14,900 bases of DNA from a virus, in the UHGV virus genome UHGV-0189183; one strand, 5' to 3'. This document shows, one piece after another, positions 461 to 13,267 of this stretch. Each line of letters begins with the position of its first letter. The first letter of the stretch is position 1. A model generated the notes under the pieces. That model saw nothing but the letters and a program-made list of their open reading frames with translations, had not been told where the DNA came from and searched no databases. Position numbers and translations under genes: made by a program.

Positions 461-912
461 AACGATAAAAACATCTCATTAAGGCCATAGAGATCGGCCT
501 ATTCCGTCAGTTTCAATAATGAATAGTTGGATGAAAAAACGACGGGGCAGGGGGCTGGCAAATCTGCGAAAAGGTTGAAAAATGCGCAAAAAAGTTATCA
601 CACCCCACGCATTATACAATGCTGCTCGCAAACCAGCGCCAACTCTGGGAAGTCAGGGGGATACACCCTAAAGTATTTTTTTCATTTTATGTATACCAGA
701 ATGGCTTTAAATCACTCACCATCCAGCGCTATAACCGGGTTTAACCGTGTATACCATCCCCCATGTGATATGACGTATTCTCATTCATAAAACCCTTTAT
801 TGTATCGAATTTGACACAATACCCGCCCGCAGTAATCAGACCGTCAAGCAAATATCGTTGTACTGTTCACGACACACCTGATCACTCAAGAATTGTTCAC
901 AGCGAGAAAAAT

Positions 913-1938
913 ATGGATAACCCGGACAAAACTCCCGTACCTGAGGTCACTGTAGCAACAGAACCGCAGCCCTCTGCAGAATGCTTCACCTTTGGCGATC
1001 CCATTCCGGTACTGGACCGGCGCGAGCTGCTTGATTATGTGGAGTGCGTACAGATTGATCGCTGGTATGAACCGCCGGTCAGTTTTGCCGGGCTGGCACG
1101 TACCTACCGCGCTGCCGTGCATCACAGTTCACCAATTGCTGTTAAGCGTGACATTCTCAGCAGCACCTTCATCCCACACCGCTTGCTCAGCCAGCAGTCT
1201 TTCGCCCGTTTCGTTCAGGATTATCTGGTGTTTGGTAATGCTTATCTGGAAAAGCGCACCAACTGGCTGGGTGGTGTCCTCTCACTGGAGCCAGCGCTGG
1301 CAAAGTATACCCGGCGCGGCGTTGACCTAGAATCCTACTGGTTTGTGAACTACGGCCTGACGATGCAGCCTTATGAGTTCACCAGAGGCAACATTTTTCA
1401 TCTGATGGAGCCGGATATTAACCAAGAGATTTACGGGCTGCCCGGTTATCTCTCCGCCATTCCGTCAACCCTGCTCAACGAGTCCGCAACGCTGTTCCGT
1501 CGGAAATATTACATCAACGGCAGCCATGTAGGCTTCATCATGTACATGACCGACGCTGCGCAGAATCAGGAGGATGTGAACAACATCCGCAAGGCAATGA
1601 AAAGTGCCAAAGGACCGGGCAATTTTCGCAATCTCTTTATGTACTCACCCAATGGCAAAAAAGATGGCATCCAGATCATCCCCCTATCCGAAGTTGCGGC
1701 GAAAGATGAGTTTCTGAACATCAAGAACGTGAGCCGTGATGACATGATGGCAGCGCACCGCGTGCCACCGCAGATGATGGGAATCATGCCGAGTAACGTT
1801 GGGGGGTTTGGAGATGTAGAAAAAGCCAGCCGTGTTTTTGTTCGCAACGAACTGATGCCGCTACAGAAGCGACTGCAGGAACTGAACGACTGGTGTGGCG
1901 AGAAAATAATTAGTTTTGAACCTTATACACTTGAGTAA
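913..1938 (+). CDS. Cargo protein resembling a P2-family (gpQ / PBSX-type) portal protein; an in-frame TTG at 811 is an alternative start
   Basis: Long ORF of normal GC content. Conserved-looking blocks (FGDPIPVLDRRELLDY, WYEPPVSF, LVFGNAYLEK, NESATLFRRKYY) match what I recall of P2-type portal proteins. Size about 341 aa from the ATG at 913. Family assignment is from memory and not verified. Confidence 0.45.
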   Translation: MDNPDKTPVPEVTVATEPQPSAECFTFGDPIPVLDRRELLDYVECVQIDRWYEPPVSFAGLARTYRAAVHHSSPIAVKRDILSSTFIPHRLLSQQSFARFVQDYLVFGNAYLEKRTNWLGGVLSLEPALAKYTRRGVDLESYWFVNYGLTMQPYEFTRGNIFHLMEPDINQEIYGLPGYLSAIPSTLLNESATLFRRKYYINGSHVGFIMYMTDAAQNQEDVNNIRKAMKSAKGPGNFRNLFMYSPNGKKDGIQIIPLSEVAAKDEFLNIKNVSRDDMMAAHRVPPQMMGIMPSNVGGFGDVEKASRVFVRNELMPLQKRLQELNDWCGEKIISFEPYTLE

Positions 1939-1967: not shown

Positions 1968-2933
1968 TTAATCGGGAAGGTTACGTAAATCGATATATGA
2001 GAAAAATGCGGCACCTTTCTCAGTTAACTCGTATCGAAGATATCGATTTTCCATTATTGGCGTTGTTTTGAGTAGGCCATGGACCATCATTAACGTGCAA
2101 ACATTTCTAACCAAAAAACCAGCTAAGTCAGTCGAATTTGATCTTAACCCAGAAAGAATAGTTCCTCTATACAGCAAAATGAGTCGCATTGCTGTTGTTT
2201 TAACTGGCTCTGGAGTTTCGGATAATTTTGTCGGGATCGTTAACTGTGTATTTTCAAATAGCTTATATATTTTACTGAACTCTTCCTCAGATGGTTTTTT
2301 TACTATAGCTTTACTTTCAGGGGAACGTGCAGCTCTGAGAAGTTCAACCTCAGATTTTAAAGCTTCATTTTCCTTCGTTAGTTTAGATATTTGTTCTATT
2401 AACACACTTGACTCTGATATTTCCTTTCCAGAAACCCACCCAAGGAGATTTCTCTCGACACCAATTTGAGGAAGTGTCTTATAAATTGATATTTGTATAT
2501 CTTTAATATCCCGAAAAAATTCCACCGGATACCCCTTGACCTTTTGTTTGAAAGCTTCATATTTTGTCGGGTTATCTAATTCAAGAACTTCCTTACCAAC
2601 TGTTTTAACTTTTTCATCTAGATATTCGTCATCAATGACTATCGAAAATAGAGGTTTGTTTGTACTTAAAGCATAATCATATTCGAGCTCTGTATAGCAA
2701 TAATCACTGCCGGGAGCAATCGTTCCATAACGCCCTCCCAGAATAAGGATGTAGATATCTGACTCATCTATCCAGCGCTTAATAATTTCTAACTGGCTTC
2801 TGTCTCCAGGCTTAAATAGCTCCATTCCCGCAGGTATATGCCCGGCAGTTAATATGGCACTTACCGCAGCTTGCCTTTCTTCAATGAGGTCTGTAAAAGT
2901 TGATGAAATGAAAACTTGAAATTTCCTATTCAT
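1968..2933 (-). CDS. DUF4062-type N-terminal domain protein with coiled-coil and uncharacterised C-terminal domain (hotspot cargo)
   Basis: 321-aa ORF. N-terminus MNRKFQVFISSTFTDLIEERQAAV carries the FISSTFxDLxxER signature I associate with Pfam DUF4062. Gene is markedly AT-rich relative to the element backbone. Confidence 0.65.
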   Translation of the reverse strand: MNRKFQVFISSTFTDLIEERQAAVSAILTAGHIPAGMELFKPGDRSQLEIIKRWIDESDIYILILGGRYGTIAPGSDYCYTELEYDYALSTNKPLFSIVIDDEYLDEKVKTVGKEVLELDNPTKYEAFKQKVKGYPVEFFRDIKDIQISIYKTLPQIGVERNLLGWVSGKEISESSVLIEQISKLTKENEALKSEVELLRAARSPESKAIVKKPSEEEFSKIYKLFENTQLTIPTKLSETPEPVKTTAMRLILLYRGTILSGLRSNSTDLAGFLVRNVCTLMMVHGLLKTTPIMENRYLRYELTEKGAAFFSYIDLRNLPD

Positions 2934-3331
2934 TTTTTATCCATATAGAGTTATTGTCATCTAACATACCTACAAAATGCTATAGGTAAATTTAAGTTGG
3001 TATTATTAGTCTTTTACTAGTATCTAATGCTGAAAAAGTTGATGAAAGAAAGACATTAGACGCAGATACCAACATCAGAGCATAATCATATGATATAGGT
3101 TAAAGCGTGTTCAAGACCGATTAACGTAAGTTCCCTAGATCTCCCCTCAGCGCGAGCAGCCCCGCCCGCCTGCCCGCTTCGCTTAACAGAATGGTTTTCA
3201 TGCACCCCGTAAATCGCCTCAGGAGCCGCCACACAAGGGCTTTCACGTCAAAAATGATGCATGAGACTCATGCGTTTTCATGCGCCATAGACATGCACTC
3301 ATGCGCTCTCAGGCCAGCCAGGAAAAAGGCG

Positions 3332-3379: not shown

Positions 3380-3652
3380 TCAGACAGGGATTTGCTGGCG
3401 GCTTGATAACTTTGATGCAGAGCCATAGCGATTGAGCGTTTGCTGTTGTTTTTCCGGCATTTGTGCTTTGTCTGATTCCTGTTCATTGCGCCGGGGCTTC
3501 ATAATTATCTTATCCACACTTTCCAGAGCGGTAAATGTGCAGGAACATTCAAGATTCTGGCACTGATACCATGAGCGTTTAACCGACGGTGCTTCATAGG
3601 CGGTGGTTCTGGCGTGTGCAACGGTGCCGCATTCAGGACATTTCAGCGCCAT
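3380..3652 (-). CDS. Ogr/Delta-family zinc-finger late-gene transcriptional activator
   Basis: 90 aa. C-x2-C-x22-C-x4-C arrangement (CPECGTVAHART...YQCQNLEC) closely matches the P2 Ogr / P4 Delta pattern. Confidence 0.85.
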   Translation of the reverse strand: MALKCPECGTVAHARTTAYEAPSVKRSWYQCQNLECSCTFTALESVDKIIMKPRRNEQESDKAQMPEKQQQTLNRYGSASKLSSRQQIPV

Positions 3653-4413
3653 CAGATACCCTCCATATCACGGTTACGTTTCTGCAGCTCTTCACGTTCC
3701 TGACGGATCTTCATTTTGTGAAGGGCCGCCGGTGACGGGATTTTGCTTAAATCGACACGAGCCGCATAATCCGGCGCAACGCCCGCCAGTTTAAACACAG
3801 GGTCCAGTTCCGGCATCGCAGTGTTAGCAAGAGCCGGTTTGGTGATATGTTTGTGAATAAAGTCTTTCAGCAGTGTGTCCGGGTCATTAACTGAATTCAC
3901 CACCCCCACAACGGCACTGGCTTCCCGCCCCATTGTGGTTTTGAGCAGGCTCAGTGTCTGGATTAACGCCTTACCATGCGCCTGCATGAAGTCTTCCCAG
4001 ATTTGCTTTGCGCGAATTTCCACAAGGGTGTTATGTGCGCTGATATACTGCCCGGCTAATTTCCCGGCTTCCTGCGGTAATAAGGCATTTTCGCTTTCCT
4101 GAGCTGCCAGCAGTTCATCAAAATCCTCAAGCGTTTCTCGTCCCAGCGCAATTTCCGTGCGCAGTTTTTTCATTTCCTTTGAGACTACGCCCTGACTTTC
4201 ACGAAACAGCGTGCGCCACTCCTCATTCAGCGCGTTCGTCGTGGCTTCCATTTCAGCCCGGCGCTGGCGGATTGTCGCAATATTATCCGCTGCCGCTTTC
4301 TGCCGACGACGTGCTTCAAGCCATGCGCTTCTGGCCGTGTTCAGGGTTTCCATTGCCTGCTGCGTTACAGCCGGAAAAGTGGAAAGGTTGTTATTCTCTG
4401 CGGTGTTGTTCAT
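3652..4413 (-). CDS. Sid/Psu-family protein (P4 capsid-size determination / polarity suppression family)
   Basis: 253 aa, strong AGGAG ribosome-binding site before the ATG at 4413. Immediately upstream of the Ogr/Delta-like gene, as sid is in P4. Helical, charge-rich sequence resembling my recollection of P4 Psu/Sid. Which paralogue it is cannot be resolved. Confidence 0.6.
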   Translation of the reverse strand: MNNTAENNNLSTFPAVTQQAMETLNTARSAWLEARRRQKAAADNIATIRQRRAEMEATTNALNEEWRTLFRESQGVVSKEMKKLRTEIALGRETLEDFDELLAAQESENALLPQEAGKLAGQYISAHNTLVEIRAKQIWEDFMQAHGKALIQTLSLLKTTMGREASAVVGVVNSVNDPDTLLKDFIHKHITKPALANTAMPELDPVFKLAGVAPDYAARVDLSKIPSPAALHKMKIRQEREELQKRNRDMEGI

Positions 4414-4447
4414 GACTTCTCCTGCCGGGTTGGTTCGTTACGTCAAT

Positions 4448-4465
4448 TGTGTCGTGACTGACACA
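4448..4465. promoter_or_regulatory. Dyad TGTGTC-N6-GACACA (TGT-N12-ACA type) upstream of the Sid/Psu-like gene
   Basis: Perfect 6-bp inverted arms. The TGT-N12-ACA layout is that of Ogr/Delta activator sites in P2/P4 late promoters. Confidence 0.4.
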
Positions 4466-4588
4466 AGCGCACTATCGGCGCTCAGTGTGTGGTGGCTGGC
4501 ACAACGGGCGTTTGCGGTTATTCAGACGCGGCCATGACAGCCAGCCAGATAAAAATGCCTCTGTTTCAGCCTGCTTTATGTCCCGGAT

Positions 4589-4787
4589 GCGGTGAAACAG
4601 GTGGAACAGGTGTTACAGCATTGTTTTGTAAAACATTTATATGCACATCACAGGTGAAACATCGCAGGTAACAAGGTGGAACAGCGGATCGGCTGGCGTT
4701 CCACCTGTTCCACCTCACTATTTCAGAAGGTGAAACAGGTTTAGCCCTTGTAAAATACGGGTGTTCCACCTGTTTCACCTGTTACCC
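4589..4787. repeat. Iteron cluster (putative origin / alpha-protein binding sites, P4 ori/crr-like)
   Basis: At least seven copies of GGTG(A/G)AACAG in both orientations, e.g. 4591-4612, 4651-4660, 4675-4684, 4699-4716, 4729-4740, 4763-4782. Reverse complement TGTT(C/T)CACC resembles the P4 octamer TGTTCACC. Confidence 0.65.
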
Positions 4788-4813
4788 TTAATAAATAAGA
4801 CTCACGCAAAGCC

Positions 4814-7486
4814 TTAACCCGGCACCTCGCTGTTGAAGACATAGAGTCTGCGGGGATTCATCTCTGGCGGGCGAATGGTTGTCTGCAGCTTGCCATCGGT
4901 GGAGGGCAGCAGGTATCCACGATCCGCGCACAGACGCGCCACCTTGCGCGGGTCAAATCCCCGGCAGATTTCTTTCCAGCCGGACGGCATGACGTAGAAC
5001 GTGGTGACGGCCTCCGTGCCCTGCGCGGTACTGCCTTTCTCCACCCTGCGCCAGCCCACCATATTGCCGGGGCGGTTACGCTCGTCGTGCCAGTCAGCAA
5101 AGCGGCTGTACTGATTCGCGGTAAAGAAGCTGCGTACCTGCTCCAGTGCGGCAATATCTTCCTGATTGGCGGTGTGCCCGCGATCTTTCAGCCATGCGTT
5201 CAGGCAGACGCGGGTTGCCCGCAGCGCTTCACCCTCAGGCCAGCCGGTAATACCCAGCCGGGTTGCCAGCTCGCCCGCCATCGCCACCAGTGCAAAGCGG
5301 TTCACAGCCCGGCCTACCTGATTACCCGCATCTTTCGGGGTCAGGGCGGCTGTATATTCCTTCATCAGTGACTTTGCCTGTGCCGTCAGCCCGTTAAGGT
5401 CAGCGGTCAGGGCTTTCAGCCACTCCCTGAACGGCGAACCGTAGTAGCTGGACGTGGCCCACTCCAGATGTTCCGCCAGAGCCTTGCCGCTGTCGAAGCC
5501 GTGCAGCTCCTCAAATACGCCAAATTTCCCGGAATCGCTGGGGATCTGGATCATCCTGACTTCCATCCCGGCAAAGGTACGCTCACCGGCTTTTGCCGCA
5601 TGTTCGGTCAGTGACAGCTCGCCGGTTGAAAAGAACAGCAGCCGCCACTGCTTACGGGTGCGCAGCTCACCGTCCGTACCGGCACGGCCCTTGCCCTGAC
5701 CGTTTGCCAGCATGTAGGCGATATTACCCGCCTCGCGTCCGTCCACCTCCCGGATCTCATCAAGCATCATGGCGGCATCGTTGCGGCGGCTGGCGCATCC
5801 CTCCAGCGCGTTGCCGGTTGCCCGCCACGTCTGCCAGTAATCAGGCCCGCCACAAACGGAGGTTGCCGCTTTCATGGTGGTGGTCTTACCGTCAGTCGAT
5901 TCCCCCTTGAGGTGGTAGCCGCCGCCGTCCATCCCAACCAGCCGTAACAGGGGTGCAGCAAAGGCCAGACTGACGGCAAACGCCACGCGGGAGTTACCGG
6001 TGCAGTAACGGGAAACGTGCTCCCGCCATTCCTCCGTTGTACCTGACACACGGAAATCGCGCCCCTGCACGGAAGTGGTCTGGAGAATGACACCCTCTGC
6101 ACCTTCACCGCTGACCTCATCCTGCAGGACGTAAACCTGACCATGCCAGCCAGTGCGGCTGACGCAGGTCACGCGGCGTTCCGGTTTACACAGCGAGATA
6201 TATTCCATCAGGCGGGCGCGGGCCTCACCGGTGGTGCTGATATAGGACAGCCCGTTAACCAGCAGTACCCGGCGTAGTTCCTCACCGCTACCACTGAGCA
6301 TTTCCATCGGCATCGCCCAGCGGCGGCGCTCTCCCCATGTATCTTCCCACTCCAGCAGTCGCCCGAAATTACCGCCATCAGCATCGCAGGTGATTGCCGT
6401 CACGCGCAACGGGTTGCATATTTTGACGTTCTGGATCTCCGTCTCACCGTTGCGCTGTACCTGTTTTTCATACCAGAGATATTCCTGGGTAAGACGGAAC
6501 CCGTGCGGCAACTGCGTGCGGCCTTCTCCGCACAGTACAAGACCGTTACGAAAGGCTTCACGGGCACGTGTAATACCGTGCTCACGGTGGAAGTCATTCC
6601 AGTCAGCTTTAATTTCTCCCGGTGGCAGCGTCACCCAGCCACCGACTGATTTTGCCGCCCGTTCAGCAAAGGATCTGCCGGGATTCTCGCCCCCGTCCTG
6701 AAAATCGTTATCACCGGCGATGATAATTTTTACCTCAGGCCAGCGTGCCCGCAGCGCCTGTGCGACGTTGGGCAGGTTGCCCGCCGATATGGCCGCCACT
6801 ACGCATCCGGCGGTGAGCTGGCTTACCGTCAACGCCGTGGCGTAACCTTCGGTAATCACCACCTGTACCGGCGGTTCAGACGGTAACGGGCTGAGCGCCA
6901 CAAACGCGCCTTTCATCGTGCTGCCGGGCAGTATGCTTTTTTCACCCGTCGGGGCGATAAGCTGTGCACCGGTCACGGCTCCGGCGTTTGTCGTGAGCGG
7001 TAACAGCAGGGAACCGGCAGGGAAATCCTTACCACTGATATGCTGCACGCTCCCGGTCAGGGAGGCCGGGTATCCGGCGAACCCTTTTCCGGTCAGATAG
7101 GGGCTTTCTCCCGTGTGACTCTCTTTCATCAGGGCCGCCACGGTAAGGCTCATATCGCGTTTAGGGGCTTTTTGCCTGGCGGGCTTAACGGGCAGTTCCT
7201 GCACATCCGGCACATTAAGCACCTGCGCCACCTCCTGCGCTGCCTTTCTGATGCCGTAACCGGTTATGAGCTTAACCAGATCCAGACCATCACCATTGCC
7301 GCACTGGCTGCAAATCCACGTCCCGCGCCCGTCGAGGTCATCGAGGCGGAAGCGATCCTTGCCCCCACATTTCGGGCAGGGACCGTGCCTGCCGTTTTCA
7401 GGTACATCAATACGCAGCATCTGCAGAATGACGGGCCATTTTCCCCGCGCTGCGGCTGAAATCTGCGTAACCGTCTGTGTTGTCAT
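4814..7486 (-). CDS. P4 alpha-type primase/helicase replication protein
   Basis: 890-aa ORF. N-terminal zinc-binding motif CPKCGG...CSQCG. Large size and position in the replication operon next to the iterons match P4-family alpha proteins. Confidence 0.85.
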   Translation of the reverse strand: MTTQTVTQISAAARGKWPVILQMLRIDVPENGRHGPCPKCGGKDRFRLDDLDGRGTWICSQCGNGDGLDLVKLITGYGIRKAAQEVAQVLNVPDVQELPVKPARQKAPKRDMSLTVAALMKESHTGESPYLTGKGFAGYPASLTGSVQHISGKDFPAGSLLLPLTTNAGAVTGAQLIAPTGEKSILPGSTMKGAFVALSPLPSEPPVQVVITEGYATALTVSQLTAGCVVAAISAGNLPNVAQALRARWPEVKIIIAGDNDFQDGGENPGRSFAERAAKSVGGWVTLPPGEIKADWNDFHREHGITRAREAFRNGLVLCGEGRTQLPHGFRLTQEYLWYEKQVQRNGETEIQNVKICNPLRVTAITCDADGGNFGRLLEWEDTWGERRRWAMPMEMLSGSGEELRRVLLVNGLSYISTTGEARARLMEYISLCKPERRVTCVSRTGWHGQVYVLQDEVSGEGAEGVILQTTSVQGRDFRVSGTTEEWREHVSRYCTGNSRVAFAVSLAFAAPLLRLVGMDGGGYHLKGESTDGKTTTMKAATSVCGGPDYWQTWRATGNALEGCASRRNDAAMMLDEIREVDGREAGNIAYMLANGQGKGRAGTDGELRTRKQWRLLFFSTGELSLTEHAAKAGERTFAGMEVRMIQIPSDSGKFGVFEELHGFDSGKALAEHLEWATSSYYGSPFREWLKALTADLNGLTAQAKSLMKEYTAALTPKDAGNQVGRAVNRFALVAMAGELATRLGITGWPEGEALRATRVCLNAWLKDRGHTANQEDIAALEQVRSFFTANQYSRFADWHDERNRPGNMVGWRRVEKGSTAQGTEAVTTFYVMPSGWKEICRGFDPRKVARLCADRGYLLPSTDGKLQTTIRPPEMNPRRLYVFNSEVPG

Positions 7487-9386: not shown

Positions 9387-10439
9387 TTAAAATCTTCCTG
9401 CTTTAGATGAGCTAAGACATTCTTTTATCTTATCTTTTCCAAGTTCAACCTTTGTTTTTGGATTGTTTCTTTCTGCCACGATTTTATCTGCCCACGCGTC
9501 AATAGTCAGTTTTCCTCGTTTTCCATTGCAAGATGCTGGGTCATTTAGTAACCAATAAATAGCTGCTTTGTACACTGCCTCTCTTTTTGTTGCTGATGCT
9601 TCAACATTACCATGCACTCTTCGGATGCTTTCGATGCTGGATACACCACCATTCACATAGCTGGGTAGCTCTTTGCCAACACCGTTATCTAATTTTTCTA
9701 TTTGGTATCTTGTTAAATAGATATCATCCAGTGTTATATTTCCAATAATATTTTTATTAGATGGAGATACTAATCCCTCTATTGATGATAAGCCTTCGAA
9801 AGGGGACATTGCTAATATTACCCACTCATCACTGCCAAATGCAGCATTAGTGAATGGCATATTAGCTTCTTTAAAAGAAATATCATGTGCTAATAGCCTT
9901 GCTTTACCATATACCTTTAGTTCTTTGTATAATGAAGATGTTGGGCTGATGACACATATAGACCACAATCCAGAAAGTAAGATTAATGGGCTTTTTATAT
10001 TTGGTTTGTTTTCTAAATGGTATATTTGTTTTGGAGGTGAAAATGGCTTATCTTCTGTATAATCAATATCGAATTTTGCTTTTGGTATGAAATGGCTTAA
10101 TGCAGATTTATTACTATAGTTTAATACTCTGGGTGGGTACATGTTTTCCCAATCTTTAAAATCTCCACCTTTACGCATCATCATTAGCGCAGCTTCGAAA
10201 CCATTTAATTCTAAGCAAAATTCGATAATTCCAATTTGAGCAAAATGGATAAGGTCATCAATTTGGCAATTAAGTAGTTCAGCAGCTCGTTTTAGGGAGC
10301 AAAATTCCATTACAGGAATACTATTCCTTTCCCAAACATTTAATCGTGTATTATCGCTCATCACGTCACCTGTATGCACATATGGTAAAATGGGGCGAAT
10401 AGCAGACTTTACTACTATTAGCCATTTTCTTATTTTCAA
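9387..10439 (-). CDS. Hypothetical AT-rich cargo protein between integrase and alpA (alternative start at 10361 with AGGTGA ribosome-binding site)
   Basis: 350-aa ORF whose first codon overlaps the integrase stop. Conspicuously AT-rich. No family recognised by eye. Confidence 0.6.
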   Translation of the reverse strand: MKIRKWLIVVKSAIRPILPYVHTGDVMSDNTRLNVWERNSIPVMEFCSLKRAAELLNCQIDDLIHFAQIGIIEFCLELNGFEAALMMMRKGGDFKDWENMYPPRVLNYSNKSALSHFIPKAKFDIDYTEDKPFSPPKQIYHLENKPNIKSPLILLSGLWSICVISPTSSLYKELKVYGKARLLAHDISFKEANMPFTNAAFGSDEWVILAMSPFEGLSSIEGLVSPSNKNIIGNITLDDIYLTRYQIEKLDNGVGKELPSYVNGGVSSIESIRRVHGNVEASATKREAVYKAAIYWLLNDPASCNGKRGKLTIDAWADKIVAERNNPKTKVELGKDKIKECLSSSKAGRF

Positions 10440-11707
10440 ACAACGCGTAGTTTTTTCATTTTATAGGGGGCAATATATCTATCAGTGTTAGCTTCAATAT
10501 AATTAGACCACCATTGCATCATCCGACGACGTTCATGCATATGCTGAGCTAAGTGTACATAAGCGGCTCGCACTTCATTTCGTTCTTGATGGCTCATTTG
10601 CCGTTCTACTGCATCCCTCGACCATAAGCCTGATTCTGTCAGGGCTGAGCACGCCATTGCCCTAAATCCATGAAGGCAAATGTCCACCTGCGTGTCGTAC
10701 CCCATAATTCTTAATGACTTATTAACTGTGTTCTCACTCATTGGTTTGTAAGGGTTACTATCTCCGGGGAAAATAAGTTCATACTCACCACTTATTTTTT
10801 TAATAGCTTCGAGAACATCAATAGCTTCATTAGATAATGGAACATAATGAATACTGCCCATTTTTGCCCCACGCTCTGAATATTTTACCCCATCAATTCT
10901 TTTTCTTTGAGCAGGAATAGTCCACATTGCATTTTCAAAATTAATTTCCTCCCATCTTGCGTGTCTCAGTTCACTGGAGCGAACAAAAGTATGAAGAGAA
11001 AATAATACTGCCAGCTTAGTTAACGGCCTCCCTGTATAGCTATCAATTTTTGATATTAATTCGGGTAATCGTTCTAACGGAAGTGCAGGGCGATGCTTTA
11101 TTTTGGGGCTGGAAATTGCTCCTCTTAGATCATGGGTAGGATTGTATTCAACAATTCCACGCTGAATAGCGTACCGGAAAACGCTTGCAAGAGTAGTTTT
11201 CACTCTTCCTGTTGTTGCTCCAATTCCCTGATCACTCATCCTCACCAATAATGGCAACAGGTCACTTGTTTTTAATGAGTCGATGGGTTTATTTCCGATA
11301 TATGGGAAAATATGATTTTCCATTTCTCTTAAAATTTTAGTGCGGGTAATCTCTTTCCATGAGGGATGGCCTATAGAGCCTTTATGCCACTCTAAAGCGA
11401 TTGTCTGGAATGTAGCAGAGGCGGGTTCTGTTGGCGCTGCTTTTTTAGATACTCTGGGATCAACACCGTCGGCTAAAAGTTGCCTTGCTTCATCTCTACG
11501 CTTACGGGCAAGTGCCAGCGAAACGTCTGGGAAAACGCCCAAAGCCAGCGTAGCTTGTTTGCCGTTAAATCTGTAGTTCATTCGCCATGCCTTGGTCCCG
11601 TTCTTTTTAACTAAAAGATACAGGCTTCCCCCATCCGTCAGTTTGTAGTCTGTTTCTTTGGGTTTAGCGTTTTCAACTTTCTTGGGTGATAGCTCATTTA
11701 GTGCCAT
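10436..11707 (-). CDS. int: P4-type tyrosine integrase (site-specific recombinase)
   Basis: 423 aa. N-terminal arm-binding-type region (YKLTDGGSLYLLVKKNGTKAWRMNYRFNGK) and C-terminal catalytic region (HGFRAMACS...VERQMSH...RAAYVH with the tyrosine). Immediately adjacent to the tRNA gene. Confidence 0.95.
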   Translation of the reverse strand: MALNELSPKKVENAKPKETDYKLTDGGSLYLLVKKNGTKAWRMNYRFNGKQATLALGVFPDVSLALARKRRDEARQLLADGVDPRVSKKAAPTEPASATFQTIALEWHKGSIGHPSWKEITRTKILREMENHIFPYIGNKPIDSLKTSDLLPLLVRMSDQGIGATTGRVKTTLASVFRYAIQRGIVEYNPTHDLRGAISSPKIKHRPALPLERLPELISKIDSYTGRPLTKLAVLFSLHTFVRSSELRHARWEEINFENAMWTIPAQRKRIDGVKYSERGAKMGSIHYVPLSNEAIDVLEAIKKISGEYELIFPGDSNPYKPMSENTVNKSLRIMGYDTQVDICLHGFRAMACSALTESGLWSRDAVERQMSHQERNEVRAAYVHLAQHMHERRRMMQWWSNYIEANTDRYIAPYKMKKLRVV

Positions 11708-11728
11708 GGAGAGTAATCTTTGTTGTCA

Positions 11729-11779
11729 GTTGATGGTATCGGTTTATCGAACCGTGAGTACCATCAACGATACCATCAG
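11729..11779. repeat. Putative integrase arm-type sites between int and the tRNA
   Basis: TGATGGTATC (11731-11740, inverted), TACCATCAAC (11759-11768) and GATACCATCAG (11769-11779); same motif as 439-460. Confidence 0.5.
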
Positions 11780-11891
11780 AATCATGTAATGTCATGAAAT
11801 CAACTGAAACCATGTTCAAGGCGACAGGCCCTGATTTTGCTGGTTTTAAGGGGGGAGGTGAAGTGTGTTGAAACGTGATGAAATGAAAAGG

Positions 11892-11966
11892 TATTGTCCC
11901 CTGCAGGAATCGAACCTGCAATTAGCCCTTAGGAGGGGCTCGTTATATCCATTTAACTAAGAGGAC
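11892..11966 (-). tRNA. argW: tRNA-Arg, anticodon CCU (argW-type); the three nucleotides after the discriminator read ATA, not CCA
   Basis: The reverse complement, read from 11966 (5' end) to 11892 (3' end), gives GTCCTCTTAGTTAAATGGATATAACGAGCCCCTCCTAAGGGCTAATTGCAGGTTCGATTCCTGCAGGGGAC-A-ATA. It folds as a cloverleaf with a CCU anticodon and a TTCGATT T-loop. Confidence 0.85.
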
Positions 11967-11977
11967 AATGCGGCATG

Positions 11978-11983
11978 AGTATA
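11978..11983 (-). promoter_or_regulatory. Probable -10 hexamer (TATACT) of the tRNA promoter with GC-rich discriminator
   Basis: On the minus strand GGGTATACTCATGCCGCATT immediately precedes the tRNA 5' end. Confidence 0.4.
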
Positions 11984-12041
11984 CCCGCTAATGGAGTGCG
12001 GGGTAAGTACGCTGCCGCTCGATTGCTTAAACCCTCGCCAT

Positions 12042-12974
12042 TTATGCCGGGTTTTTATAATTTTTCTTAATGTTTTCCGCACGTTCTGCTTTTTGGCGTG
12101 CTTCTGCTTTACGCTTATTGCTCATGTCGTTACGAATCTGTGCATGACTCATTAACGCGAAGATAAAGGTGCCGCCGCAGATGTTCCCCGCTAAAGTAGG
12201 TAGTGCGAAGGGCCAGATGAAATCGCTCCAGTGCAGCGTACCGTTAAACACCAGATAGAGGATTTCAACAGAACCGACCACGATATGGGTGGTGTCACCC
12301 AGGGCAATAAGCCAGGTCATCAATATAATCACCACAATCTTTGCCGCACCCGCTGCAGGAAACATCCAAACCATAGTGGCGATCAGCCAGCCGGAAATGA
12401 TCGCGTTGGCAAACATCTCGCTGGGGGTGTTCTTCATCACATCCATGCCGATTTTGACAAATGCATCGCGAGTTTCTTCATTGAAGATAGGCATATATTC
12501 AAATGCCCACGCCGCAATACCTGTCCCGAGAATATTACCCAGCAGCACGACGCCCCATAACCGTATAAGTAAGCCGACGTTGCTCATTGTCGGTTTTTGC
12601 ATGACGGGTAGTACCGCAGTCACGGTATTTTCGGTAAATAATTGCTGGCGGGCCATAATGACGATAATAAAACCAAAGGTATAACCGAGATTCTCCAGCA
12701 AGAAGCTGCCCGGCACACCTTCCAGTTCGACTTGAAATATCCCTTTTGCCAGTAACGAAGCGCCCATCGACAGACCCGCCGCAATGGCTGACCACAGTAG
12801 CGCCATTGCGTCGCGTTCCAGCTCTTTTTCACCATCCTGGCGGATATGCTCATGAATTGCCATCGCCCGGGAGGGGAGTCGGTCTTCATCTATTTCTATT
12901 TTTTTGCCGCGCTCTTTTTCTTCGCTCTCAACTTCAATTTCGTCGCTGTGTTGATCAATTTTGTCGTTGTCCAT
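12042..12974 (-). CDS. yfdC: Formate/nitrite transporter (FNT) family inner-membrane protein, YfdC-like
   Basis: 310 aa. Acidic N-terminal tail followed by multiple hydrophobic transmembrane segments. Sits between tRNA-Arg and mlaA as in E. coli. Confidence 0.75.
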   Translation of the reverse strand: MDNDKIDQHSDEIEVESEEKERGKKIEIDEDRLPSRAMAIHEHIRQDGEKELERDAMALLWSAIAAGLSMGASLLAKGIFQVELEGVPGSFLLENLGYTFGFIIVIMARQQLFTENTVTAVLPVMQKPTMSNVGLLIRLWGVVLLGNILGTGIAAWAFEYMPIFNEETRDAFVKIGMDVMKNTPSEMFANAIISGWLIATMVWMFPAAGAAKIVVIILMTWLIALGDTTHIVVGSVEILYLVFNGTLHWSDFIWPFALPTLAGNICGGTFIFALMSHAQIRNDMSNKRKAEARQKAERAENIKKNYKNPA

Positions 12975-13267
12975 GGTCTCTTCTCTTGAATTAGCACGTA
13001 TAGCTAAAGCGTAGCGGCTTTTTTGCTCGCAACTGACGGGAGTTACTCTGAAAATGTAGAAAAGGCTGCGTTTGCCTTTTTCTGTTTCTATAGAATCAAG
13101 TAGCCTACAGGGCGGCGATTACCAGGCTATGATCAAATCAGCAAATCAGGGCGTCTGGACATCAGTTGACGTGCTGTTACAATCGCCCACACCTAAACAG
13201 GCGGATACGGTATCGTTCCGTCATGGATGGCAAACTGCATAAGCCATAAAAAAACAGGGAGACATTT

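Follow-up and report, generated by a model that had tools for sequence, protein, structure and literature searches.

The window analysed here, a stretch of 14,900 nucleotides (nt) from the virus genome UHGV-0189183, holds a P4-like satellite inserted in an Escherichia coli chromosome, and this satellite carries an intact portal gene of the P2 family as its sole structural gene. Sequence comparisons suggest that a lineage of P4-like satellites acquired a working portal subunit from its P2-family helper and kept it, and that this protein, on balance, probably supplements the helper's own portal during assembly. A decoy, a neutral remnant or a pure recombination anchor each appears less likely than a supplementing portal.

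The gene was delimited by profile matches, by the Prokaryotic Genome Annotation Pipeline (PGAP) and by tblastn:

913-1938, plus strand, portal gene (gpQ homologue), 341 amino acids (aa), intact

In line with the initial annotation, which had taken the product for a P2/PBSX-type portal, the protein matched TIGR01540 (portal_PBSX) with 337.3 bits (cut-off 166) over model positions 1–316 of 320, phrog_68 with E = 6.8e-169 over profile positions 11–339 of 344 (329 covered) and PF04860 with E = 1.9e-16 (60.6 bits against 39.1). In tblastn searches, residues 21–341 were 85–92% identical to Peduoviridae portals (Yersinia MLG42, Klebsiella ST15-OXA48phi14.1, SopEPhi and Fels-2), and the core was about 94–96% identical to the closest sampled phage portals, which were those of the E. 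coli E189 prophage and of Citrobacter and Salmonella copies. Identity to P2 gpQ was 64%, and identity to helper portals at the DNA level was 81–90%. The open reading frame (ORF) had been drawn from TTG 811 and so began 102 nt early: the frame is broken by a 1-nt indel that homologues show within 811–912, PGAP gives a protein of 341 aa starting at ATG 913, and the stretch 811–912 is promoter and leader. The satellite protein may form a dodecameric portal at the capsid vertex; no solved structure related to it by sequence was found. The gene does not lie next to large terminase and capsid genes, as is usual for its family, and while gene P overlaps the portal start in phages, the satellite portal has no gene P upstream. 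Pfam and PHROG scans, which took in ten of the larger ORFs of the element, and the PGAP annotation of an identical element detected no capsid, scaffold, protease, terminase or head–tail connector genes, so that the portal is, as had been proposed, the only structural gene in a P4-like satellite.

The limits of the satellite are given by two direct repeats:

372-387, no strand, attR core, 16-bp copy of the tRNA-Arg(CCT) 3' part (direct repeat; tRNA annotation)
11899-11914, within the tRNA gene, second 16-bp att repeat, direct-repeat partner of the first

Because these repeats enclose the portal gene, it belongs to the satellite and not to a neighbouring prophage. An origin of the gene in an adjacent P2-like prophage remnant was considered and rejected, since the gene lies inside the att repeats and moves with the satellite between chromosomal sites. 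The island between the repeats measures about 11.5 kb and occupies argW; the window runs from the end of dsdC (13–270) through the island and tRNA-Arg(CCT) (11894–11967, minus strand) to yfdC and mlaA, and in satellite copies found in other chromosomal contexts the match begins at window position 366. The gene set (integrase, alpha primase, Sid-like protein and Ogr/Delta-type activator) identifies the element as a P4-like satellite, as the initial annotation had assumed. It combines a tRNA-site integrase and att repeats with a size of about 11 kb, an alpha primase, a member of the Sid/Psu family, an Ogr/Delta protein and cos, and departs from the P4-like pattern in that it does not lack virion structural genes, the portal lying within the att-bounded element.

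Six satellite portals were available as sequences: the window copy, three more from E. coli (one at argW and two at leuX), one from Pseudocitrobacter vendiensis and one from Pantoea stewartii. None of the six contained an internal stop or a frameshift, one had an extended C-terminal tail, and all shared the N-terminus MDNPDK...SAECFTFGDP; three further IMG/VR copies aligned over residues 1–341 and were intact. Among 142 portals placed in a neighbour-joining tree, the satellite copies formed one clade (bootstrap 195/200 against the 35 nearest sequences), marked by seven substitutions (A24C, D59A, A96S, D140E, T141S, Q146N and R158) that occurred in at most 3% of 132 phage portals. This single clade with its shared private substitutions indicates that the divergence accumulated inside satellites. 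Pairs of satellite portals showed synonymous divergence (dS) of 0.18–0.54 and a ratio of nonsynonymous to synonymous divergence (dN/dS) of 0.03–0.04, the latter being 0.01–0.04 for pairs of phage portals. Nineteen of 301 core sites varied among satellites, and these were mostly sites that vary in phages too (entropy 1.03 versus 0.21 bits, p = 8e-8). At the sequence level, then, the constraint profile of the satellite portal is like that of working phage portals, which argues against a decaying remnant and against a protein for which some of the portal surfaces would suffice.

The region upstream of the portal gene carries a putative late promoter, which was compared with that of the sid-like gene:

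801-818, plus strand, TGT-N12-ACA box 1 (TGTATCGAATTTGACACA), putative Ogr/Delta activator site (pattern search; invariant in six satellites)
853-858, plus strand, -10-like hexamer TATCGT within the invariant block AAATATCGTTGT (six-satellite alignment; putative in its geometry)
859-876, plus strand, TGT-N12-ACA box 2 (TGTACTGTTCACGACACA), centred 45.5 nt upstream of the ATG (pattern search)
3380-3652, minus strand, Ogr/Delta-type late activator, 90 aa (PF04606, E = 1.1e-16)
3652-4413, minus strand, Sid-like capsid size-determination protein, 253 aa (match to P4 Sid; phrog_6165, E = 7.6e-94)
4448-4465 and 4486-4503, minus strand, two TGT-N12-ACA boxes upstream of the sid-like gene (pattern search)

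P2 late promoters are Ogr-dependent and share the consensus TGT-N12-ACA (PMC3931495). Six matches to this pattern were present in the 14.9 kb against 3.3 expected, and four of them formed two pairs, one upstream of the portal gene and one upstream of the sid-like gene. The boxes of the latter pair are centred 43.5 and 81.5 nt upstream of the ATG, which is exactly the geometry of the P4 Psid boxes (9493–9510 and 9531–9548, lying 81.5 and 43.5 nt upstream of sid), and this agreement validates the motif in the element. For the portal gene, a transcription start predicted, not mapped, near position 865 places box 1 at about −55; in the P–Q operon of P2, about 56 nt separate the annotated activator site from the start site downstream of it. 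A −35 element or a sigma-70-type promoter was not found on the plus strand upstream of the portal gene, and a dyad about 55 nt upstream of the predicted start without a −35 element is the geometry of Ogr/Delta late promoters. We infer that the portal promoter is activated by Ogr or Delta. The homology upstream of the portal gene in the six satellites starts at box 1 and is nearly invariant as far as the ATG; the box and the −10 block are unchanged in all six despite the diverged synonymous sites of the gene itself. Box 2 has conserved TGT and ACA ends and a variable interior, and P4 Psid and the sid-like promoter of the window likewise possess a second box, at 43.5 nt from the ATG. Upstream of box 1 the sequence tracks the integrase and att type: the region 398–800 goes with the type of integrase and not with the portal, and is conserved only in relatives with the same att, including one without the portal (L007, from Enterobacter soli; L-numbers denote compared sequences). 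The portal gene and its promoter thus form a discrete module whose first conserved base is that of box 1. Derivation of this promoter from the phage P-gene promoter was rejected, as there was no similarity beyond the box consensus.

Downstream, the portal gene is followed by three features:

1937-1968, no strand, symmetric hairpin A6-GCCAC-TGAA-GTGGC-T6, probable bidirectional intrinsic terminator (-18 kcal/mol)
1968-2933, minus strand, DUF4062-domain gene, 321 aa, variable cassette between portal and cos (PF13271, E = 2.7e-28)
3131-3330, minus strand, cos region (aligned to the P2 and P4 end junctions and to four phage cos regions)

The 200-bp cos region lies downstream of the DUF4062 gene and just before the delta stop codon, and it is conserved in all related satellites. 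It shares with P2, P4 and four Fels-2-type phages the sequence AAGCGGGC followed by a G-rich core, as well as GCATG repeats (about 3195–3305) that match those beside cos in these phages. Its core GGCGGGCGGGGCTGCTCGC (3152–3170, minus strand) aligns to the 19-nt cohesive ends of P2 and P4, differing from these and from the Fels-2-type cores; as it stands one base out of register with the P2/P4 19-mer, the cleavage positions are only predicted. With as many as three mismatches allowed, a search of the window for the 19-nt cohesive end of P2/P4 returned nothing, and cos was recognised only through its alignment to phage cos regions. In helper phages of the Fels-2, Gegavirus and Wadgaonvirus types, the terminase gene P and the portal gene Q are followed by variable cargo of opposite orientation and then by cos. 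Five phages and prophages (Klebsiella ST15-OXA48phi14.1, Escherichia 500465-1, Fels-2, SopEPhi and the E. coli E189 prophage) had the portal, at least one convergent cargo gene and cos 1.5–1.9 kb past the portal stop, and the window block shows the same order of Q, cargo and cos. The hotspot described for P2 is likewise the slot between gpQ and gpA, beside cos (PMC9122126). Because this order is identical in satellite and helpers, the satellite carries the left end of a helper genome, next to cos, together with sid-like and delta genes of its own. Plausibly, satellite and helper DNA were joined at cos and a deletion followed. Gene P was replaced by a short promoter region.

The synteny with the helper Q–cargo–cos block would also be expected if the portal were a neutral hitch-hiker that arrived with cos or with a cargo cassette and has had too little time to decay. 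The rarity of the portal in the family, its deletion in L007 and the window allele, which carries two substitutions at otherwise invariant sites, fit this explanation as well. It is nevertheless quite improbable, given dS of up to 0.54 within a satellite-only clade at dN/dS of about 0.03, with no stop or frameshift in any of the six copies, a promoter block better conserved than the synonymous sites of the gene, and the replacement of the overlap with gene P by a new start context. A remnant of recombination had been among the proposals of the initial annotation; its P2-like origin is supported by the order of portal, cargo and cos, whereas the intact copies, the low dN/dS and the conserved late-type promoter speak against its being in decay.

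The portal and DUF4062 genes converge across the shared hairpin, as had been described before; its fold had a z-score of −5.67, and none of 200 shuffled sequences was as stable. The slot between portal and cos held the DUF4062 gene in the window; L002, L003 and L018 had a 120-aa gene there and L010 one of 558 aa, so that unrelated cassettes occur in otherwise near-identical elements, as expected of a variable hotspot. The last few codons of the portal gene differ with the cargo, which puts the cassette junctions at its extreme 3' end. In the Pantoea stewartii element (L012), whose portal ORF (11685–12809) encodes 374 aa, the usual stop codon was lost at the cassette junction and the protein gained an unrelated tail. 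The DUF4062 gene is a candidate defence gene; neither its product nor the 120-aa cargo protein had a PADLOC match, and the DUF4062 protein had no NCBIfam match and no close relative among phage records. The 120-aa cargo gene of L002 had distant homologues only, in unrelated phages. Within E. coli the DUF4062 gene was confined to nine complete genomes, and all copies with listed or examined surroundings lay in this satellite type. No DUF4062 cassette, which would have been a sign of recent exchange between helper and satellite, was found in phages or in E. coli P2-like prophages. L033 (CP019275, E. coli p13P477T-2), a circular P2-like element of 37 kb in a plasmid record, has at 4001–6735 a homologue of a satellite cargo gene that is frameshifted and 55% identical. 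It occupies the corresponding slot, convergent with the portal of L033, and follows dinI, which itself comes after gene A, where cos would be expected. The portal is the fixed flank of the variable hotspot and not a swapped cassette; the earlier description of it as cargo holds insofar as it is a rare accessory module (about 14 of 858 E. coli satellites), but not in the sense of an exchangeable insert.

A portal gene that flanks a hotspot could be kept as DNA homology, the portal and cos flanks allowing cassettes to be swapped by double crossover with helpers or with other satellites. The identical order of flanks in satellites and helpers, the occurrence of the same cargo family in the same slot of L033, the cassette junctions at the extreme 3' end of the portal gene and the breakpoints inside the gene in the L007 remnant are in agreement with such an anchor, and missing homology may explain the reported lack of exchange between P2 and P4 (PMC13586616). 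Selection has acted on the protein and not on the DNA, though (dS to 0.54 at dN/dS of about 0.03); the satellite portals are monophyletic with no sign of conversion by helper portals, to which their DNA is only 81–90% identical; the DUF4062 cassette, restricted to the nine E. coli genomes with this satellite type, has no close phage relative; and the late promoter would be left unexplained. We therefore regard a function as recombination anchor alone as quite improbable.

The initial annotation had also raised the possibility of a decoy or poison portal, namely a slightly altered subunit that co-assembles or competes with the portals of the helper or of rival P2-like phages and serves as an anti-phage or pro-satellite weapon, either by spoiling capsid assembly and packaging or by biasing assembly towards satellite capsids. 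The portal stands at the edge of the variable, defence-associated hotspot of the satellite (for the hotspot concept see PMC9122126), its module is accessory and rare and in this resembles defence cassettes, the clade carries seven substitutions including D59A at an Asp conserved in 98% of phage portals, and the N-terminal 23 residues are private to satellites. Yet this N-terminal segment is hypervariable among phage portals also, and the core is only about 4–6% removed from the nearest phage portals. Purifying selection extends over the full length of the protein as it does in phage portals, with the same sites varying, while a decoy would need some of the interfaces only. Moreover, the satellite relies on the same capsids, so that a poison would harm itself, and a late promoter would time expression to assembly and not to the exclusion of an incoming phage. 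Interference with other portals thus seems unlikely.

If the satellite portal supplements that of the helper, it would be made only when the late activator of the helper or of the satellite is present, and its expression would coincide with that of the helper capsid proteins and of the Sid-like protein of the satellite. The satellite protein would then enter the portal dodecamers that seed helper-derived procapsids, and a multicopy, replicating satellite would add to the portal supply. Capsids of the small, Sid-determined type would contain fewer capsid subunits and still one portal each, so that more portals would be needed per pool of capsid protein; portal could become limiting for this reason. 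As a side effect, portal and cos flank the hotspot of the satellite just as they flank that of the helper. We also consider, as a tentative and rather doubtful extension, that the satellite controls the first step of head assembly: procapsids seeded by its own late-expressed portal would preferentially take the shape set by the Sid-like protein and package satellite DNA. The private N-terminal segment and the private substitutions, D59A among them, may be markers of such control.

Several observations weigh against a portal that supplements the helper's. The satellite type defined by sid, delta and cos was present in 858 of 5,426 complete E. coli genomes, but the satellite-specific 5' region of the portal occurred in only about 14, and among seven related satellites in other species two had a portal and five had none. 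When these five portal-less relatives and P4 were searched for portal remnants, only L007 had one (13040–13180): the last ~30 portal codons are kept there, adjoining a cargo gene (556 aa) with 83% identity to that of the portal-bearing L010, which shows that the portal module was deleted in this element and is not essential. All satellite portals carry D59A, so that an altered function is possible, and the window allele additionally has R118W and A206V, at positions that are invariant in 131–132 of 132 phage portals; the other satellite copies retain R118 and A206. An AlphaFold2 model built from a 24-sequence alignment reached a predicted local distance difference test score (pLDDT) of 39.9, too low for use. 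Finally, box 2 is at odds with a simple −55 model of the promoter.

As to its spread, the exact portal protein of the window was found on 319 contigs, named by their sources as Salmonella enterica; the protein is on record from E. coli too. In all ten places shown, an identical satellite surrounded the portal, in the E. coli-type context (dsdC side) as well as in other chromosomal contexts, and the same protein and element in several contexts indicate recent horizontal spread. Such a distribution would fit mobilisation by a P2-family helper.

The remaining part of the element includes the following features:

441-460, no strand, probable arm-type integrase site, two TACCATCA units (repeat search)
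11759-11778, similar TACCATCA pair in the other att arm, probable arm-type integrase binding sites
10436-11707, minus strand, integrase (tRNA-site integrase)
9387-10439, minus strand, 350-aa ORF without a family match

From the integrase onwards, the minus strand encodes the 350-aa ORF, an AlpA-like helix-turn-helix protein, an Icd-like protein, a DUF5375 protein, an alpha-type primase of 890 aa (primase-helicase match to phrog_1139, E = 7.8e-185), the Sid/Psu-family protein and the Ogr/Delta protein. Different genes take the place of the 350-aa ORF, between the integrase and the AlpA-like gene, in relatives (e.g. a 639-bp gene in L003 and L018), and this position may be a second variable slot. 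The Sid-like protein could be aligned to P4 Sid over its full length, at 25% identity (246 aa, E = 6e-14), and to P4 Psu over 28 residues only; its gene goes under the names Psu, 'phage capsid morphogenesis protein' and 'septation initiation protein' in annotations. A psu gene in addition to it is absent from the window copy of the satellite; in the relatives L010 and L011, delta is followed by a second paralogue with 30% identity. Between the sid-like promoter and the alpha stop codon (4560–4800), at least eight copies of GGTG(A/G)AACAG are present in both orientations; these are similar to the type-1 iterons that P4 has in ori and crr, and their position, just downstream of alpha, is that of P4 crr.

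P4 is the textbook satellite without a virion gene of its own. The element resembles it in its tRNA-site integrase, alpha primase, DUF5375, Icd-like, Sid-like and Delta proteins, in the double-box promoter of the Psid type, in a cos homologous to that of P2 and P4 that is followed by a variable hotspot, and in its size of about 11.5 kb. It differs from P4 in the helper-type portal of this lineage, in the lack of a separate psu in the window copy, and in the integrase and attP being on the opposite side of the hotspot. P4 has been described as having no structural genes and cos as its only region homologous to P2 (PMC9122126), and P2-like helpers and P4-like satellites have been reported not to exchange genes (PMC13586616). 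With P2-family gpQ the satellite portal shares the curated family, a similar length, a variable N-terminus of about 23 residues, a variable C-terminal tail, and a convergent cargo gene and cos downstream, the nearest types being Fels-2, SopEPhi, Klebsiella ST15-OXA48phi14.1 and Yersinia MLG42. In contrast to gpQ, it stands outside a P–Q operon, with its own TGT-N12-ACA promoter and start context, carries the seven clade substitutions, and resides in an 11.5-kb element without capsid, scaffold or terminase genes.

Capsid-forming phage-inducible chromosomal islands (cf-PICIs) encode a full head module with capsid, protease, portal, head–tail connectors and terminase subunits (PMC10085698, PMC13612085). 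The element is like them a satellite that encodes its own portal, but it is not a cf-PICI: a head module is missing, and the portal stands alone and is nearly identical to that of the helper instead of belonging to a separate lineage. With the cos-adjacent hotspots of P2-like and P4-like elements it has in common a variable slot beside cos that is filled by unrelated cassettes in near-identical elements; unlike in published satellite hotspots, the portal itself forms one border of the slot, as it does in the helper. Hotspots have been defined in satellites by psu and int, and in P2 by gpQ with gpA nearby (PMC9122126). Because of these definitions, the portal-flanked layout was probably missed by surveys. 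The small terminase (TerS) of the Staphylococcus aureus pathogenicity islands (SaPIs) is a satellite homologue of one packaging component of the helper, and it changes packaging specificity. Both cases involve a single helper-derived head or packaging gene in a satellite that otherwise borrows the virion, although no change of specificity is evident for the portal, which is 94–96% identical to those of likely helpers. No published description of a portal-bearing P4-like satellite was found in the literature covered, which is incomplete and no proof of absence.

The satellite portal represents a clear transfer of a core structural gene from helper to satellite, kept under selection with a late promoter of the satellite type, in an element that is widespread in Salmonella and E. 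coli. It raises the question of whether portal supply or portal identity limits the spread of satellites. The hotspot flanks shared by satellite and helper may matter for the movement of defence cassettes. If head assembly were indeed under satellite control, the element would be an intermediate between P4 and the cf-PICIs with their whole capsids, and it would document gene transfer from P2 to P4 in a pair reported not to exchange genes.

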